Shown here one piece after another: positions 21,420 to 59,101 of a stretch of 64,000 nucleotides of DNA. Positions within the stretch are counted from its first letter, which is position 1, and each line of letters starts with the position of its first letter. The DNA lies in assembly GCF_946900835.1 (NCBI RefSeq), contig NZ_OX336137.1:1228213-1292212 (forward strand). Direction: 5' to 3'. The notes under the pieces were generated by a model. That model saw only the letters and a list, made by a program, of their open reading frames with translations, did not search any database and was not told the origin of the DNA. This DNA is from Nitrospina watsonii (GTDB taxonomy: Bacteria; Nitrospinota; Nitrospinia; Nitrospinales; Nitrospinaceae). The translations under genes and the position numbers were made by a program.

Positions 21420-23033
21420 TTATTTCTTGAGCAGTCCTGACAAATTGGATAAGGACGACTCCACCGCTTTTCGTTGCGCGTCGAGTTGACCCAGAATCAC
21501 TTCCAATTGGATAAACTGATTACGAATCCGGTCCTCAAACAATTTCAGCCGGTCATCCAGCCGGAGAATGACTTCATTGAGGTCCTCGATTTGTTCCGTG
21601 GTGGTGTTGATGTCACCCATCAACGGGCCGTTCTGCGTGGTGTCCGTGTTGAATGTCAGCACCCGGTCCAGTTTCTCCGCCACGCCGATGGAAACAGCGA
21701 TCGTCCCCTTGCTGCCGTTGCTGGCCAGTTCCGAGGAATCGATGCTGAACACCAGACCCTCGGCGCTGGTTCCCGCCGCGCCGATGAAGGTGCTGCCCGG
21801 ACCCTGCACGGCCGCAGTGAAACTGGCTTCGCCCACCTTGCGCAATTCCGGAACGCCGCCGGTGACCTGAAGCTCAAACGTGCCTTGCTCGGTTTTGCTG
21901 TTGGCGTTCAGGAAATCGACATTGGCGTCGGTGGCGGAACCGGAGGTGATGAACAGGTTGGCCACGCCTTCCGGATCGCTCACCAAGGCCGAGCTCAACT
22001 TGGCGCTGTCCAGCACCAACGTGCCGTCGTCCTGGGTGCTGATGCCGATTTGCGACAGGAAGCTGAACGAACTGCTCAACCCGGTCACCTGGCTCGAAAC
22101 CAGGTTGCTGAGGGTTTCTTCCAGGTTGCGCACCGAGAACTGGCCGAACAGCGGGCCGGACTCCAGCGTGTCGCTGTCGAAAAACGCCTGCTCGTCAATG
22201 AAAGTTTGCACCTCGTTGAACTGCTTGACGAAATCCTCGATCTTGGTGCGGATGTTGTCGGTGTCGATGCTGATGTTGATGGTGCCGGAACCCAGCGCGT
22301 CCAGGCTCAGCGTCGTGCCGGTGATGACGTCGTTGACGGTATTGGTGGAACGGGTGTAGCTGATGCTGTCGAGAGTGAACGTCGAATCCTGCGCCGTTTG
22401 AATGCTGGTGAAAAACTGGTCCGTTCCGCCTTCAAAATAACGGGCCGTCACATCCTGGCTGGAGCCGGTCTGGTTGCCCTCGATCACAATGCTGATGGGA
22501 GTGGCCGAACCGTCATCCACCACCTTGGCGGTGACATCCGCCGCTGAGGCGTTGATCAGGTCCACAATCTCCTGCACGGTTTCGTCGCCGCCGACGGTGA
22601 TATCGGTTACGGTGCTTCCGACTGTGATCCGGAAAAATTCGCCGTCCAGGCCCGGGTTGTAAGTATCCGTCGCTGCACTGAACCGGTCGTCGGACTGCAC
22701 AATCCCCGTCTGCGCCAGCTGGGTGACGTTGATGTCGAACGCGCCGGTGGGCGAGTTCACGCTGGTGTTGACGCCGACTTTGGCGGTGGAGGTGTCGCCC
22801 AGGAAATCGCCAACCTTGTTCAGCATGCGGTCGCGAATGTCCATGGTCCGCACCAGGCTCTTGAACGATCCAGCCAGCGTGCGCAACTCCTTGAACAGGT
22901 CGAGCTTGTCGATCTGCAACTCGCGTTCGGACACCTTCGCTTCCAGAGGACGCTGCTGCAGAGCGATCAGTTGCTCGACGACTTCCGAGGTGTTGAAGCC
23001 GGATTGAAGGCCAAATATGGATGTGATTGCCAT
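21420..23033 (-). CDS. fliD: Flagellar filament cap protein FliD
   Basis: Start at MAITSIFGL. Conserved FliD N-terminal and C-terminal coiled-coil segments (DRLKLFEDRIRNQFIQLE...). The ORF extends upstream to 23336. Confidence 0.85.
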   Translation of the reverse strand: MAITSIFGLQSGFNTSEVVEQLIALQQRPLEAKVSERELQIDKLDLFKELRTLAGSFKSLVRTMDIRDRMLNKVGDFLGDTSTAKVGVNTSVNSPTGAFDINVTQLAQTGIVQSDDRFSAATDTYNPGLDGEFFRITVGSTVTDITVGGDETVQEIVDLINASAADVTAKVVDDGSATPISIVIEGNQTGSSQDVTARYFEGGTDQFFTSIQTAQDSTFTLDSISYTRSTNTVNDVITGTTLSLDALGSGTINISIDTDNIRTKIEDFVKQFNEVQTFIDEQAFFDSDTLESGPLFGQFSVRNLEETLSNLVSSQVTGLSSSFSFLSQIGISTQDDGTLVLDSAKLSSALVSDPEGVANLFITSGSATDANVDFLNANSKTEQGTFELQVTGGVPELRKVGEASFTAAVQGPGSTFIGAAGTSAEGLVFSIDSSELASNGSKGTIAVSIGVAEKLDRVLTFNTDTTQNGPLMGDINTTTEQIEDLNEVILRLDDRLKLFEDRIRNQFIQLEVILGQLDAQRKAVESSLSNLSGLLKK

Positions 23034-23180
23034 GATGATGTTTCCCAATTGGACCGTTGCGTTGCCGCTGACCGGTCCCCCCTTCAGAGAAGGGGGAGCC
23101 CATCGGCTTGCGCCCATGGACCATCGTTCGCTCACAGAGCATCCGCCCGTTTGCCGCGGGCCACGCCCGCTCCTGATGAT

Positions 23181-23210
23181 CTTATCGGCCTTAAAATATG
23201 CGGACTTTAG
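23181..23210 (-). promoter_or_regulatory. Sigma-28 (FliA)-type promoter for fliD-fliS
   Basis: Minus strand reads TAAAG-N16-GCCGATAA (consensus TAAA-N15-GCCGATAA), about 150 bp upstream of the fliD start. Confidence 0.45.
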
Positions 23211-23337
23211 GAAAAAACAGGGCGGCCCCTGCCCTCTGCCTGAAGAACTTGCGTGGCAGGGGGCAGGGCATTGAAATTGCTGGGTTTGGGTATCGGGGCT
23301 TGAATCGGCTGCCGGGAAAGTGATATAAGGCCCCACT

Positions 23338-24027
23338 ATGCCCGATCAACTCGACCTGTTTTCCCAGCCGCCGGTGGAAGAGCCGGTAAAGCCCCAAAAA
23401 CCAAAGGATTTGGGGCCGCGTATCCTGTATTTCGACCTGGAGACGCAGAAGAGCGCCGATGAAGTGGGCGGCTGGGGCAATATCAAGGACATGCTGATGG
23501 CCGTCGGCGTCGTCTGGGACAGCCACGACCCGAAACACCACGTTTATTACGGCGAGCCGGACAAGAAGGACGGGCCGGGCTACACCGATCTCATCGACCA
23601 CCTCAAGTCCGCCGATCTGGTGGTCGGTTTCAACGTCATCGGCTTCGACTACACCGTCATCCAGGGCGCCGCCAGCCAGCGGCACATCGACTTGCTCGAC
23701 ATCCCCACCTTCGACATGCTCGTCGATTTCACCCAGAAAAAGAACCACCGCATCAAGCTCGACAACCTCGCCGGCTGCACGCTGGGCACGAAGAAGTCCG
23801 CCGACGGATTGATTTCACTGCAATGGTGGAAGGAATACCTGGGCGGGGACAAGATAAAGCTCGACCAGATCGTCGAGTACTGCAAGCAGGACGTCAACGT
23901 GACGCGTGACCTGTTCTTATTCGGCAAGGACCACGGCTACGTCGAGTACGACGGCCGCAGCGGCCAGCGCCTGCGCCTGAACGTGGACTGGACCGTCGAA
24001 ACCATCCTCAAATCCCCACATCGGTAA
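23338..24027 (+). CDS. PolB-type DEDDy 3'-5' exonuclease (COG3298-like)
   Basis: 229 aa. ExoI YFDLET, ExoII FNVIGFD and ExoIII YCKQDVNVTRD (YxxxD) motifs. Confidence 0.7.
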   Translation: MPDQLDLFSQPPVEEPVKPQKPKDLGPRILYFDLETQKSADEVGGWGNIKDMLMAVGVVWDSHDPKHHVYYGEPDKKDGPGYTDLIDHLKSADLVVGFNVIGFDYTVIQGAASQRHIDLLDIPTFDMLVDFTQKKNHRIKLDNLAGCTLGTKKSADGLISLQWWKEYLGGDKIKLDQIVEYCKQDVNVTRDLFLFGKDHGYVEYDGRSGQRLRLNVDWTVETILKSPHR

Positions 24028-24030
24028 ATA
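23977..24030. repeat. 54-bp perfect direct repeat, copy 1 (3' end of the exonuclease gene)
   Basis: Identical to 24917-24970. Verified base by base. Confidence 0.9.
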
Positions 24031-24094
24031 CGCGCACATCATTGCGGGAAGAAGAAGGGCTTATGGTCCGTGAGGGAAGAATCATAAGGTCCCT

Positions 24095-24250
24095 TTCCCC
24101 CCTCCCCTGTACCAAGGGGAGGGTCGGGGTGGGGTTTTGGAGTGCAACCCGTGTTCACGGGTTGCGACCACCAATACCTCCCCTCAATCCCCTCCTTGGA
24201 AAGGAGGGGAGATGATGGGGTCTCGCCGGAAGACGGTAGGCCGTCCTTGA
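24095..24250. repeat. Cluster of GC-rich REP-like hairpins
   Basis: Three hairpins here: CCCTCCCCT-GTACCA-AGGGGAGGG, GCAACCCGTG-TT-CACGGGTTGC and CCCCTCCTT-GGA-AAGGAGGGG. Related units occur at 26421-26530 and 53717-53789. Confidence 0.6.
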
Positions 24251-24373
24251 ATTTTGATTTCCCCGCGGCTTGAGTCTAAAATAGCGTGGAGTGCATTGAG
24301 AGCCGTCCGCCCGGCAAAGCCGGTTGAGGACATAATTAATGAGACCCTTGCGTAAGTGGGATTAAACCAAAAA

Positions 24374-24548
24374 CATAGATTCTTCGCTGACGCTCAGAAT
24401 GACAATTCAGGCTCCAGCATGTCATTCTGAGAAGCCGGGCCACGCCCGGAGGAGACAAGTGGCTTTTGGATTGGCTGACAACCCATCATTCGCCCTAATA
24501 GCAGAACCCTATTCCTCTCCCTGTAAGGGAGGCGACGAAGAATCTATG
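24374..24548. mobile_element. MITE-like element or structured RNA with 13-bp terminal inverted repeats
   Basis: CATAGATTCTTCG at 24374-24386 and CGAAGAATCTATG at 24536-24548. Internal hairpins include a perfect 12-bp stem (24393-24431), CCGGGC-CAC-GCCCGG, and CTCCC-TGTAA-GGGAG. Confidence 0.35.
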
Positions 24549-24604
24549 GGTTCACTCTTTTTAAGGCTTATGCGAAGCTCTCATTATTGATTGGAGATCG
24601 ATTC

Positions 24605-24835
24605 ATGAAACGCAATGTGATTCAGATCATTCTTTATCCGGGAGATCAAAGCGGCTATGTCGCCGAATGCGTCGGCCTGCCGGTCATCACCCAGGGGAGC
24701 ACGATCGACGAGACGGTGAAGAACATGCAGGAGGCGCTGGCTTTGCACCTCGACGGGGAGAACCTGGAAGAGTTGGAACTGTCACCCAATGCCCCCATCA
24801 TTGTGAGCATGGAGCTGCAACCGATTCATGGTTAA
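24605..24835 (+). CDS. hicB: HicB-family antitoxin (UPF0150)
   Basis: YPGDQSGYVAECVGLPVITQGSTIDETVKNMQEALALHLDGE, typical HicB RNase H-like fold signature. The ORF begins at 24587. Confidence 0.7.
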   Translation: MKRNVIQIILYPGDQSGYVAECVGLPVITQGSTIDETVKNMQEALALHLDGENLEELELSPNAPIIVSMELQPIHG

Positions 24836-24920
24836 ACTGCGCCGCCTGTCCGGAGGGCAAGTGGTAGCGATCCTGGAGAACTTCGGGTTTTCTCCAATCG
24901 GGCAAAAGGGAAGCATCTGA
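24828..24920 (+). pseudogene. hicA: HicA toxin, truncated after 30 codons
   Basis: Translates to MVKLRRLSGGQVVAILENFGFSPIGQKGSI*, which stops just before the conserved GSH catalytic region. The TGA stop lies inside the 54-bp repeat copy 2. Confidence 0.55.
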
Positions 24921-24970
24921 ACGTGGACTGGACCGTCGAAACCATCCTCAAATCCCCACATCGGTAAATA
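24917..24970. repeat. 54-bp perfect direct repeat, copy 2
   Basis: Identical to 23977-24030. Confidence 0.9.
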
Positions 24971-24978
24971 AAAGTTTG

Positions 24979-25362
24979 CTAGTACATATGTGTTCTGCCT
25001 AGTAGATATATCTTGGTTTGTTTGGCGGGCATTTTGTTGTATTCACGACATTCTGATTGTCCGCCTTCAAAAATATATCCCTGCTTTCCAAATCGGTTCA
25101 AAATCTGAATTTCAGAAACTCCTTTTAGACCCTTAGGCTTTTTTATTATTCCGGTACAAATTCCACCAATCATGGCTTGATATATTGTTTCTGTGACTCG
25201 CCGCTCTTTAGAGATGATTTCAACAATTCCTTGTTTGTGATTTACGGATTTTGGTTGCCACAGTTTCAGACTATTTAAAATCTGCGTTGAAACGGAGTCG
25301 GCATATACAGGAGTTATAAAAAAGAGAGATATTAATAAGATTTTCGGAAGAGTTCTTATCAA
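24979..25362 (-). CDS. Small secreted hypothetical protein (low-GC; TTG start overlapping the MoxR stop)
   Basis: 127 aa. Signal peptide ILLISLFFITPVYA-DS. GAGGTG RBS inside the MoxR 3' end. Local GC is about 38%. Confidence 0.45.
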   Translation of the reverse strand: MIRTLPKILLISLFFITPVYADSVSTQILNSLKLWQPKSVNHKQGIVEIISKERRVTETIYQAMIGGICTGIIKKPKGLKGVSEIQILNRFGKQGYIFEGGQSECREYNKMPAKQTKIYLLGRTHMY

Positions 25363-26354
25363 ACCTTCACCTCAGCGAGTAGCTTGTCGATGATGTCCTG
25401 GGTTTTGATGTTTTCGGCTTCGGCTTTGAAGTTGAGCAGGATGCGGTGTTCCAGCACCTGCTGGCTGACGCTTTTGATGTCGTCGATGGTGACGGCGACG
25501 CGGTTGTCCATCAGCGCCCGCGCCTTGGCGGCCAGCACCAGGTACTGACTGGCGCGCGGCCCCGCCCCCCAACTGACCCACTCGGTGACGAATCCCGGCG
25601 TCGTGCCGTTCCCCGGTCGTGACGCCCTAACCAAATCCACCGCATACCGCGCGACGTGATCCGACACCGGCACCTTCGGCACCAGCTTCTGCAAGGCCAG
25701 AATGCGGTCGGCCTCCATCACCACCTCCAGTTCCGGCTTCACGCCCGACGTGGTGGACAGCGCGATCTGCACCTCCTGCTCCTTGGTCGGGTAATCGACG
25801 TTGATGATGAACATGAAGCGGTCGAGCTGCGCCTCGGGCAGGGGATAGGTGCCCTCGTGTTCGATGGGGTTCTGCGTGGCGAACACGAGGAACGGCGGCT
25901 CGAGGTGATACGTGTTCGAGCCCACCGTCACCTGGTGTTCCTGCATGGCCTGCAACAGCGCCGCCTGCGTTTTCGGCGGGGTGCGGTTGATCTCGTCGGC
26001 CAAAATGATGTTGGCGAAGATGGGGCCGCGGATGAAGCGGAACTCGCGTTTGTTCGTCGCCTGGTCCTCGTACAGGATCTCGGTGCCGGTGATGTCCGAC
26101 GGCATGAGGTCGGGCGTGAACTGGATGCGGCTGAACTTGAGGTTGAGGACTTTCGCCAGCGAGCTGACGAGCAGCGTCTTGGCCAGCCCCGGCACGCCGA
26201 CGAACAGGCAGTGCCCGCGCGAGAACAGGGCGACCAGGAGGTCTTCGATGACGGCGTCCTGGCCGATGATGACCTTGCGGATTTCTTTCAGGACGTTGTT
26301 TTTGGCTTCCAGCAGCTCGCGGGCGAGATCGAGATCGGGCGTCGTTTGGTCCAT
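25359..26354 (-). CDS. MoxR-family AAA+ ATPase
   Basis: 331 aa, Walker A GVPGLAKT, Walker B ILADEINR, typical MoxR size. Confidence 0.9.
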   Translation of the reverse strand: MDQTTPDLDLARELLEAKNNVLKEIRKVIIGQDAVIEDLLVALFSRGHCLFVGVPGLAKTLLVSSLAKVLNLKFSRIQFTPDLMPSDITGTEILYEDQATNKREFRFIRGPIFANIILADEINRTPPKTQAALLQAMQEHQVTVGSNTYHLEPPFLVFATQNPIEHEGTYPLPEAQLDRFMFIINVDYPTKEQEVQIALSTTSGVKPELEVVMEADRILALQKLVPKVPVSDHVARYAVDLVRASRPGNGTTPGFVTEWVSWGAGPRASQYLVLAAKARALMDNRVAVTIDDIKSVSQQVLEHRILLNFKAEAENIKTQDIIDKLLAEVKV

Positions 26355-58120: not shown

Positions 58121-59101
58121 ATGGTCGAAACCAATCCGCAGAACGAAGAAAAACAGTCGAACGAAGGCAACGGGCCTTCGGGAACTCCAGCCAAACCAGC
58201 ATCGACACCCGCTCCCAAACCCGATGCGGGTGCCAAACCCGATGCGGGTGCCAAACCCGACGCAGGAGCCAAGCCCGATGCGGGCTCCAAGCCCGATGCG
58301 GGCTCCAAGCCCGATGCGGGCTCCAAGCCGGAAGGCGGAGCCGCACCCGCCGCCAAACCCGCTGCCGCGAAACCGGCAGGGGCCGCTGCGCCGGGTGCCA
58401 AGCCGGCTGCTCCCGCCAAACCTGCCGCCAAACCCAAAGTCGAGAAGAAACCGCTCATCGACAACGGCGACGGCACCATCACCGATCCCAATTCCGGTTT
58501 GATGTGGAAAAAGACCGACGCGTGGATCGACACCAAAAAATTCTACACCTGGCCACAGGCTCCCGAATACGTGGACAAGGTCAACGCGGAGAAGTTCGCC
58601 GGTCACGCCGATTGGCGTATTCCCAACAAGGCGGAAGCCGCGTCGCTGGTGGACAAGACCAAAAAGAGCATGGACAAGAACGGCACCGAGTACCCGTTCG
58701 ATCCGATTTTTGAAATCGGCGCGGCGGCGGTGACGTGGATCACCGAATGCACCGAAGAAAAAGTCGTGCGCTTCGATTACAAGATCAGCAGTGAGTTCAC
58801 CTATCCCCCGTGTGAGCTCTGGTCGTCCATCCGCGTGGTGCGGAACGCCGAAGGCTACGAAGACGTGCCCAAACCCGGTGCAGCTCCCGCCGCGAAACCC
58901 GCTCCGAAACCGGGCGCCCCGGCGGCCGGTGCAAAGCCCGCGGCTCCGGCCGGCACGGCTCCCAAACCTGCCGCACCCGCCGGCGACAAGCCTGCCGCTC
59001 CGGCGGGAGACAAGCCCAAACCGCCCGAAGGACAGGATAACGCGCCTTCGGGAGAGACGCCCGCCGCGCCCAAACCGGCGGACCCTCCGGCATCGCAATA
59101 A
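58121..59101 (+). CDS. DUF1566 (Lcl C-terminal domain) protein flanked by Ala/Pro/Lys-rich low-complexity repeats
   Basis: Core NGDGTITDPNSGLMWKK...DWRIPNKAEAASL. N-terminal (KPDAGA)n repeats and a C-terminal AP-rich tail. Confidence 0.7.
   Translation: MVETNPQNEEKQSNEGNGPSGTPAKPASTPAPKPDAGAKPDAGAKPDAGAKPDAGSKPDAGSKPDAGSKPEGGAAPAAKPAAAKPAGAAAPGAKPAAPAKPAAKPKVEKKPLIDNGDGTITDPNSGLMWKKTDAWIDTKKFYTWPQAPEYVDKVNAEKFAGHADWRIPNKAEAASLVDKTKKSMDKNGTEYPFDPIFEIGAAAVTWITECTEEKVVRFDYKISSEFTYPPCELWSSIRVVRNAEGYEDVPKPGAAPAAKPAPKPGAPAAGAKPAAPAGTAPKPAAPAGDKPAAPAGDKPKPPEGQDNAPSGETPAAPKPADPPASQ
58217..58342. repeat. Seven tandem copies of an 18-bp unit (AAACCCGATGCGGGTGCC / AAGCCCGATGCGGGCTCC) encoding KPDAGA/KPDAGS
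   Basis: Read directly from the sequence. Units 1-2 are identical and units 4-6 are identical. Confidence 0.85.

Follow-up and report, generated by a model that had tools for sequence, protein, structure and literature searches.

Illegitimate recombination as the favored origin of a duplicated exonuclease gene end in Nitrospina watsonii

INTRODUCTION

How does the 3′ end of a gene come to stand twice in a genome, once in its gene and once as an orphan on the far side of DNA that relatives lack? A locus of Nitrospina watsonii raises this question. In a 64,000-nt stretch of its genome (contig NZ_OX336137.1, positions 1,228,213–1,292,212 of the forward strand; hereafter the window, whose own numbering is used throughout), the end of an exonuclease gene recurs exactly after an insert that contains palindromic DNA, the antitoxin gene hicB and a broken copy of the toxin gene hicA. 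An earlier inspection of the letters alone (the sequence-only reading) took the two copies for attL and attR, the attachment (att) sites of an element integrated site-specifically into a gene terminus, and offered two options: the decayed remnant of an integrative element, or a recombination scar. Integrative elements do occupy the 3′ ends of protein-coding genes. Examples are e14 and phage 21 at icd, and the integrase-less cis-mobilizable elements (CIMEs) of Streptococcus thermophilus at fda. Here we describe the locus, compare it with related loci, and weigh the possible origins of the repeat. Of the two options, we favor the scar.

RESULTS

The repeat duplicates the native exonuclease tail

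The 54-mer (CTGAACGTGGACTGGACCGTCGAAACCATCCTCAAATCCCCACATCGGTAAATA) occurs at 23977–24030 (copy 1, forward strand) and at 24917–24970 (copy 2, forward strand), with 0 mismatches between the copies. Because the bases beside the two copies differ on either side, the length of the repeat is exactly 54 bp. No third copy was found in the window at ≤3 mismatches (0 expected, 100 shuffles), and the pair is the only long perfect repeat across the window. Copy 1 consists of the final 51 nt of the exonuclease coding sequence (ORF 23338–24027) plus 3 nt. The anatomy given by the sequence-only reading is therefore correct on both counts, the perfect identity and length of the repeat and its register with the gene end. 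Copy 2 is an orphan, non-coding duplicate of the exonuclease tail. The insert between the copies spans 24031–24916 (886 bp), and repeat unit and insert together make 940 bp.

Copy 2 has the N. watsonii-specific bases of copy 1. An AAC and a TAAATA are present in both copies and absent from N. gracilis, Nitrospina sp. 32_T5 and the related locus L091, each of which differs from the 54-mer at 5 of 54 positions. Since these lineage-specific bases are common to both copies, the two come from one lineage and not from an attP and an attB that evolved independently. The 35-nt core of the repeat had 0 matches in the metagenome and viral contigs scanned. The duplication of the native exonuclease 3′ tail is real and recent.

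The exonuclease has a conserved body and a variable tail

The exonuclease gene (23338–24027, forward strand) is full length and encodes a 229-aa RNase H-like protein of the DEDDy type. Its product matches RNase_H_2 (PF13482, E = 3.4e-14), falls also in phrog_403 ('DNA polymerase exonuclease subunit'), and contains the DEDDy-type motifs YFDLETQK, FNVIGFDY and YCKQD. The N. gracilis protein is of equal length and 90% identical in amino acid sequence, and the C-terminal tail is of the N. gracilis type (...DWTVETILKSPHR). Between lineages, the body of the gene retains 84–89% nucleotide identity as far as the motif GACTGGA (23986–23992). Beyond this point, alleles of the N. watsonii/N. gracilis type and those of the type seen in locus L090 can be aligned only with heavy divergence. 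A survey of 30 further homologs, together with the alignment, showed that tails past the conserved D/N-W are hypervariable yet collinear across Nitrospinota.

Identity along the gene is mosaic in places. The first 135 nt of the L091 gene are 93% identical to N. watsonii (76% for N. gracilis), and positions 135–330 group with N. gracilis at 96%. This pattern, in small counts, hints at recombination between lineages. In the N. watsonii gene itself, a test for recombination in the 3′ segment gave no significant signal (4 versus 4 differences in 101 nt).

Upstream of the exonuclease, the window has one long ORF for the flagellar cap protein FliD (21420–23336). At the corresponding place N. gracilis and Nitrospina sp. 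32_T5 apparently have two tandem fliD copies (L001 1–1732 and 4219–5789; L088 1–3787); those of N. gracilis 3/211 are annotated as split N- and C-terminal genes.

The insert opens with a probable relic of another lineage's tail

Two nucleotides past copy 1, on the forward strand, lies a stretch (24032–24070; t2) that reads AHIIAGRRRAYGP followed by a stop. P0048, an exonuclease 84% identical to that of N. watsonii, terminates in ...DWNPAHIIAGMKKG, and P0049, of locus L090, in ...DWNPTHIIEGRKKVG. By tblastn within a 1.5-kb region, AHIIAGMKK of P0048 matched AHIIAGRRR of the stretch with E = 0.008. At the DNA level, 24035–24058 and the 3′ end of the L090 gene agree at 21 of 25 positions, and the Smith–Waterman score of the stretch against L090 was 28, compared with 17.6 ± 2.1 for shuffled sequences (0 of 300 as high). 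These data suggest that 24032–24070 is a remnant of a P0048-type exonuclease tail. Because the match is short, we call it a probable relic and not a certain one. It is short of just ∼21 nt at the start of its tail. Tails after the conserved DW vary naturally between lineages, so a P0048-like lineage is the probable source. We also considered that the AHIIAG-like stretch might be native spacer that deletions had fused to the gene in L090. This idea was dropped: by collinear alignment and the tail survey, the L090 tail is a diverged orthologous tail.

The insert closes with hicB and a broken hicA

At the other end of the insert lies hicB (24605–24835, forward strand; 76 aa), identified from homologs and alignment as an apparently intact, orphan antitoxin gene. 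Its product is a 100% match to an N. watsonii protein annotated as a HicB family antitoxin and has 31 homologs at 54–92% identity. It retains 23 of 23 invariant columns in an alignment of 14 sequences, itself included; its matches in Pfam and PHROG are weak. Overlapping its 3′ end is a hicA remnant (24828–24916, forward strand), which comprises codons 1–29 of ∼80 when aligned with the intact hicA genes of loci L081, L083 and L085. The last homologous codon is CAT (24914–24916), for the His of the GSH motif, and the next base is the first of copy 2. One nucleotide is deleted 3 nt ahead of the break, and the current stop codon (24918–24920) falls within copy 2. Pfam HicA_toxin covers residues 11–29 only. 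Conserved HicB is present here without the intact HicA (∼60–80 aa, PF07927) that marks a HicAB module, whereas in relatives hicB is followed by an 80-aa PF07927 HicA. Since hicA is truncated and frameshifted, the antitoxin is the sole survivor of the pair. Pfam and alignment thus bear out the earlier statement that hicB and a truncated hicA, and no integrase, lie between the copies.

In gene order and overlap, hicB before hicA, the pair resembles ∼60 intact homologous pairs and type II toxin–antitoxin cassettes of the HicAB kind; the difference is the toxin gene, which here breaks off at codon 29 of 80 and carries a frameshift. Across 80 metagenomic loci of this hicB–hicA family, hicA is mostly intact. 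Five hicBA contexts read in detail showed no integrase and no flanking repeats; all were solitary chromosomal cassettes. Other Nitrospina-like genomes also have toxin–antitoxin cassettes, of differing kinds, in narrow intergenic spaces. In three contigs (L081, L082 and L084) hicB(A) lies between hemA and hemC, with HEPN/nucleotidyltransferase pairs adjoining in L082, and hicA is cut short or absent in several cassettes of this type.

Two palindromic modules fill the space between

Module 1 (24057–24284) is a long composite hairpin in which perfect hairpins are nested, at 24100–24123, 24144–24165 and 24188–24210. The fold of the surrounding 24028–24330 has a predicted energy of -140.8 kcal/mol (z = -4.6). 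The hairpin patterns at 24101–24122 and 24188–24210 had no other match in the window, and BLAST showed no second copy of the module. Module 2 (24332–24591), previously described as resembling a miniature inverted-repeat transposable element (MITE), has 25-nt imperfect outer inverted repeats and nested pairs at 24374–24386/24536–24548 and 24393–24404/24420–24431; its fold is predicted at -91.1 kcal/mol (z = -4.1). Both modules contain perfect inner hairpins. Neither is repeated in the window or in ∼170 related loci, and each may be a MITE, an RNA or a structured spacer. The 'repetitive hairpins' of the sequence-only reading are real as structured palindromes, but their repetitive nature is not confirmed. 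Rfam searches of 22900–25500 gave only sub-threshold noise. Against plasmid and phage collections, the 886-bp insert gave one 43-nt match at chance level and nothing meaningful.

Related genomes have an empty but variable site

A search for empty sites had been proposed as a check, and single-tail alleles were indeed found, in N. gracilis 3/211, in a near-identical contig (SRR35217041) and in Nitrospina sp. 32_T5. In these, 15–22 bp separate the stop codons of the exonuclease gene and of the convergent gene for a MoxR-type ATPase. The gap is 8–73 bp in ∼25 further Nitrospinaceae loci. Judged from these gaps, the exonuclease and MoxR genes of Nitrospinaceae commonly converge with little space between them. 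Since the sites of relatives are empty, the whole 1.33 kb between the two genes was gained in the N. watsonii lineage. The exonuclease 3′ end was duplicated in 0 of 84 related loci (80 + 4; repeats of at least 13–14 nt, within the fetched flanks). An old rearrangement fixed in all relatives, with no empty sites, had been named as the outcome that would speak against integration; it is not what the loci show.

The same spot holds other genes elsewhere: higBA and a secreted protein in L043 (4773–5384), a 260-aa protein in L002, umuDC-like genes in L012, a DUF4011 helicase in L090, and in L091 a 450-aa gene without a Pfam domain. None of these insertions comes with a repeated tail. In L090 (3472–8240), a related Nitrospina contig, the gene after the exonuclease is not MoxR but encodes an accessory protein at least 1849 aa long, and the insertion runs past the contig end. 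The domains of this protein (DUF4011, AAA_11/AAA_12 helicase, MTES_1575 and GreA_GreB) make it look defence-like.

No site-specific recombination machinery was found at the locus

Neither the insert nor the ∼12 kb flanking it on each side yielded a recombinase (20 ORFs, at 11.3–20.7 kb and 26.6–41.4 kb; 15 with non-recombinase Pfam domains and five with no match). A look for tyrosine or serine recombinases that recognize this site in related strains had been proposed. In the nine other loci tested, none lies beside the exonuclease 3′ end; the adjoining genes have non-recombinase Pfam domains or, in L091, none. The window holds no tRNA gene, which excludes an att site of the tRNA type. With no recombinase, no recurrent use of the site, a right end that cuts hicA mid-gene and a left end formed by a probable tail relic, the interpretation of the two copies as attL and attR does not hold up well.

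The right flank is a separate acquisition

Eight nucleotides from copy 2 is the stop codon of a 127-aa accessory ORF on the reverse strand (24979–25362), which matches phrog_3807 over its full length (E = 1.1e-25). Its GC content is 36%, versus 57% for the window, and its N-terminus resembles a signal peptide. It stands as a lone inserted ORF, and its TTG start overlaps the MoxR stop codon (TTGA), an arrangement that suggests translational coupling to MoxR. It has twelve homologs at 47–57% identity, with homologs of this level beside a transposase/AbiGi or a methyltransferase gene, and homologs at 30–35% identity lie near the attachment end of P2-like prophages. The ORF is not in N. gracilis or 32_T5, and neither it nor hicB has relatives in the viral contig collection. 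The sequence-only reading had seen in this ORF a sign of a larger acquired segment. Foreign it is, by its membership of phage protein family phrog_3807; it is a separate acquisition. Beyond it, the conserved convergent neighbor that bounds the variable spot is the MoxR-type AAA ATPase gene (25359–26354, reverse strand; Pfam AAA_3, E = 1.3e-62), whose product is 96% identical in amino acid sequence to those of L001, L088 and L089.

Elsewhere in the window, seven tandem 18-nt units (CCAAACCCGATGCGGGTG-like) at 58197–58340 lie inside an ORF and encode a six-residue peptide repeat. Past 58340, more Pro/Ala/Lys-rich repeats extend to ∼59000.

DISCUSSION

Illegitimate recombination guided by homology

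Our best account of the locus, held with a little more belief than doubt, is that illegitimate recombination, guided by homology, took place in a variable spot between the two convergent genes; such a process is not site-specific and would have left the repeat as a by-product. The patch at 24032–24916 (885 bp) does not look like a mobile element. It looks like the region downstream of the same gene in another Nitrospina lineage, which would run from the tail relic through a palindromic spacer to hicB–hicA and end mid-hicA. Recombination could have brought such DNA in, with the conserved exonuclease body as its anchor, and illegitimate joints at the homology border would have closed the insertion. 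The result would match what is seen: the exonuclease is intact and keeps its native tail (copy 1), a second tail (copy 2) stands as an orphan, the antitoxin gene has lost its partner, and the toxin gene is dead.

The positions of the joints are consistent with this scheme. On the exonuclease side, the right joint falls at 23977, 16 nt before the alleles diverge at GACTGGA, and both joints lie near the point where the two allele types cease to be similar. The right joint links unrelated sequences, hicA codon 29 and the equivalent of 23977, with a 1-nt deletion alongside. Conserved anchors adjoin the acquired DNA, the exonuclease body on one side and MoxR on the other.

Three routes would each give exactly this structure, and we do not choose among them. 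In the first, two one-sided events, each part homologous and part illegitimate, would amount to a 'tail displacement' similar to homology-facilitated illegitimate recombination (HFIR). One event would import the foreign tail and its cargo, and the native tail would be pushed downstream and orphaned; the other would restore the native tail ahead of the foreign one, possibly by copying from the orphan. In the second, a circularized 940-bp fragment would integrate via the 54-bp homology by a single crossover of the Campbell type. In the third, template switching would occur during replication or repair.

Several observations weigh against this account. A search for the donor arrangement it implies (an exonuclease with an AHIIAG tail, then the palindromic modules and hicBA) found none, and none of the hicB-bearing loci carries an exonuclease homolog close by. 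The DNA past the L090 tail differs from the patch, and the relic itself spans only ∼9–13 codons or 25 nt. Convincing microhomology could be shown at neither joint; at the hicA/exonuclease joint, intact relatives read CAT-ATC/ATT-AAA and N. watsonii reads CAT-CTGAA. The scheme requires two events, or one unusual event that generates a duplication. Finally, a repeat that ends 3 nt past a stop codon is equally expected of an integrative element that restores the end of its target gene.

Known events of a similar kind

HFIR (de Vries & Wackernagel 2002; Prudhomme et al. 2002; both as cited in PMC5361080) has been proposed to explain how displaced 3′ ends and orphan immunity genes came to form arrays in type VI secretion system (T6SS) and Rhs loci (PMC5361080). 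In E. coli, a conjugation assay built to detect HFIR yielded mostly single crossovers of circular molecules, which left the inserted DNA between duplicates of 109–950 bp of the homologous segment (PMC3240628). The N. watsonii locus shares with these products foreign DNA beside a conserved anchor gene and one or more non-homologous joints at the homology border. A duplicated piece of the anchor may flank the insertion in both cases (109–950 bp in PMC3240628), and no recombinase gene is needed. It differs in that the duplicated segment is just 54 bp, the apparent donor is the orthologous locus of another lineage and not a construct, and the route is reconstructed from one genome, not observed.

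The likeness to Rhs, contact-dependent inhibition (CDI) and T6SS effector loci (PMC5361080) is of another sort. There, as here, a conserved 5′ body carries a hypervariable 3′ tail, a new tail stands ahead of an older relic, and the protective partner (here hicB) is kept as the toxic one is truncated. Unlike those effectors, the exonuclease is no toxin, and hicBA is not functionally tied to it. The locus has one relic and one orphan copy, in contrast to a long array.

Other origins of the repeat

The strongest rival, though we think it unlikely, is a decayed integrative element. On this hypothesis an element with a tyrosine or serine recombinase entered the exonuclease 3′ end and brought a replacement tail, the 54-mers are its attL and attR, and its integrase and most of its cargo were later deleted, leaving a CIME-like remnant. 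A variant holds that the divergent AHIIAG tail is a replacement gene end carried by the element, as in e14 and phage 21 at icd. The repeats span the last codons, the stop and 3 nt and bracket DNA missing from empty-site relatives. As with integrative elements at other gene ends and their remnants, the target gene is kept intact and the remnant lacks an integrase. A toxin–antitoxin cassette at the edge would suit element stabilization, a phage-family gene lies next door, the divergent tail of L090 likewise precedes an accessory gene, and a deletion running into attR could account for hicA abutting the repeat. Yet neither an integrase family, nor recurrent use of the site, nor a related intact element was found: recombinases are absent from the insert, from the ∼12 kb around it and from beside the exonuclease in nine loci, the tail is duplicated in none of ∼84 loci, and the five hicBA contexts are solitary, without integrases or flanking repeats. 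The 54/54 identity would demand an attP equal to the N. watsonii sequence, whereas relatives differ at 5 of 54 positions. The junctions, moreover, cut a gene and a tail relic instead of element arms. The left end is exonuclease-derived and lies directly past copy 1, whereas after an integration the displaced tail would be expected at the far end of the element; the right arm is hicA broken at codon 29; and the phage-family ORF lies outside the repeats.

Rearrangement within one chromosome, with no foreign donor, appears less probable still. It might, for example, combine tandem duplication of 940 bp with a later deletion, or consist of replication slippage or template switching, and it presumes that the hairpins and hicBA already stood downstream of the exonuclease in the same chromosome. 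It would account for copies that are identical and lineage-specific and for two junctions of illegitimate appearance, and palindromic DNA promotes replication errors. But the deletion or switch point would have to fall by coincidence 3 nt past a stop codon, and neither the relic of another lineage's tail nor the absence of the patch from the nearest relatives is explained.

We give little credence to the exonuclease 3′ end as a reusable docking site that serially captures and displaces small integrase-less cassettes, here hicBA with a palindromic leader. Capture may then be the work of a recombinase encoded elsewhere and acting in trans, or of 'tail displacement' as in Rhs and CDI loci. If this were true, the hypervariable tail and spacer would be a dedicated gene-capture locus in Nitrospinaceae.

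An assembly artefact or mixed population, in which a collapsed or chimeric join formed at a short shared sequence, is very improbable. A de Bruijn artefact was entertained because 54 equals k-1 at k = 55; we set it aside on the assembly methods. The sequence comes from a pure culture, N. watsonii 347, and is a Nanopore and MiSeq hybrid: canu was run on Nanopore reads (N50 8.2 kb) and Unicycler with 2×300-bp MiSeq reads at 54x coverage (PMC10112255). Arguing from these methods, short reads would cover each 54-mer with both flanks and long reads the 940-bp unit, which makes an artefact unlikely.

Target-site duplication by a transposase is effectively refuted by the anatomy of the locus, despite the MITE-like palindrome: the insert does not end in inverted repeats (its ends read CGCGCACATC... 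and ...GGGAAGCAT), one end is a broken gene, the insert lacks a transposase, and 54 bp compares with short duplications of 2–15 bp. A length of 54 bp is far beyond the known target duplications of transposases.

Implications

Under homology-guided illegitimate recombination, the account we favor, the locus adds a new case to a known kind of event and reveals no new system. It would show that a duplicated gene end, often taken for an att site, can come from such recombination, and it counsels caution in calling att sites. For annotation, three features deserve a flag: hicB is an orphan, hicA is a pseudogene, and the second gene tail is a non-coding copy through which the 940-bp unit could be lost. 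More broadly, the locus would offer a small view of gene flow between Nitrospina lineages. It would be a clean case of accessory-gene gain without visible mobile-element machinery, in a spot between convergent genes of a marine nitrite oxidizer that grows slowly: an antitoxin and a phage-family secreted protein here, and higBA, helicases and umuDC in relatives.

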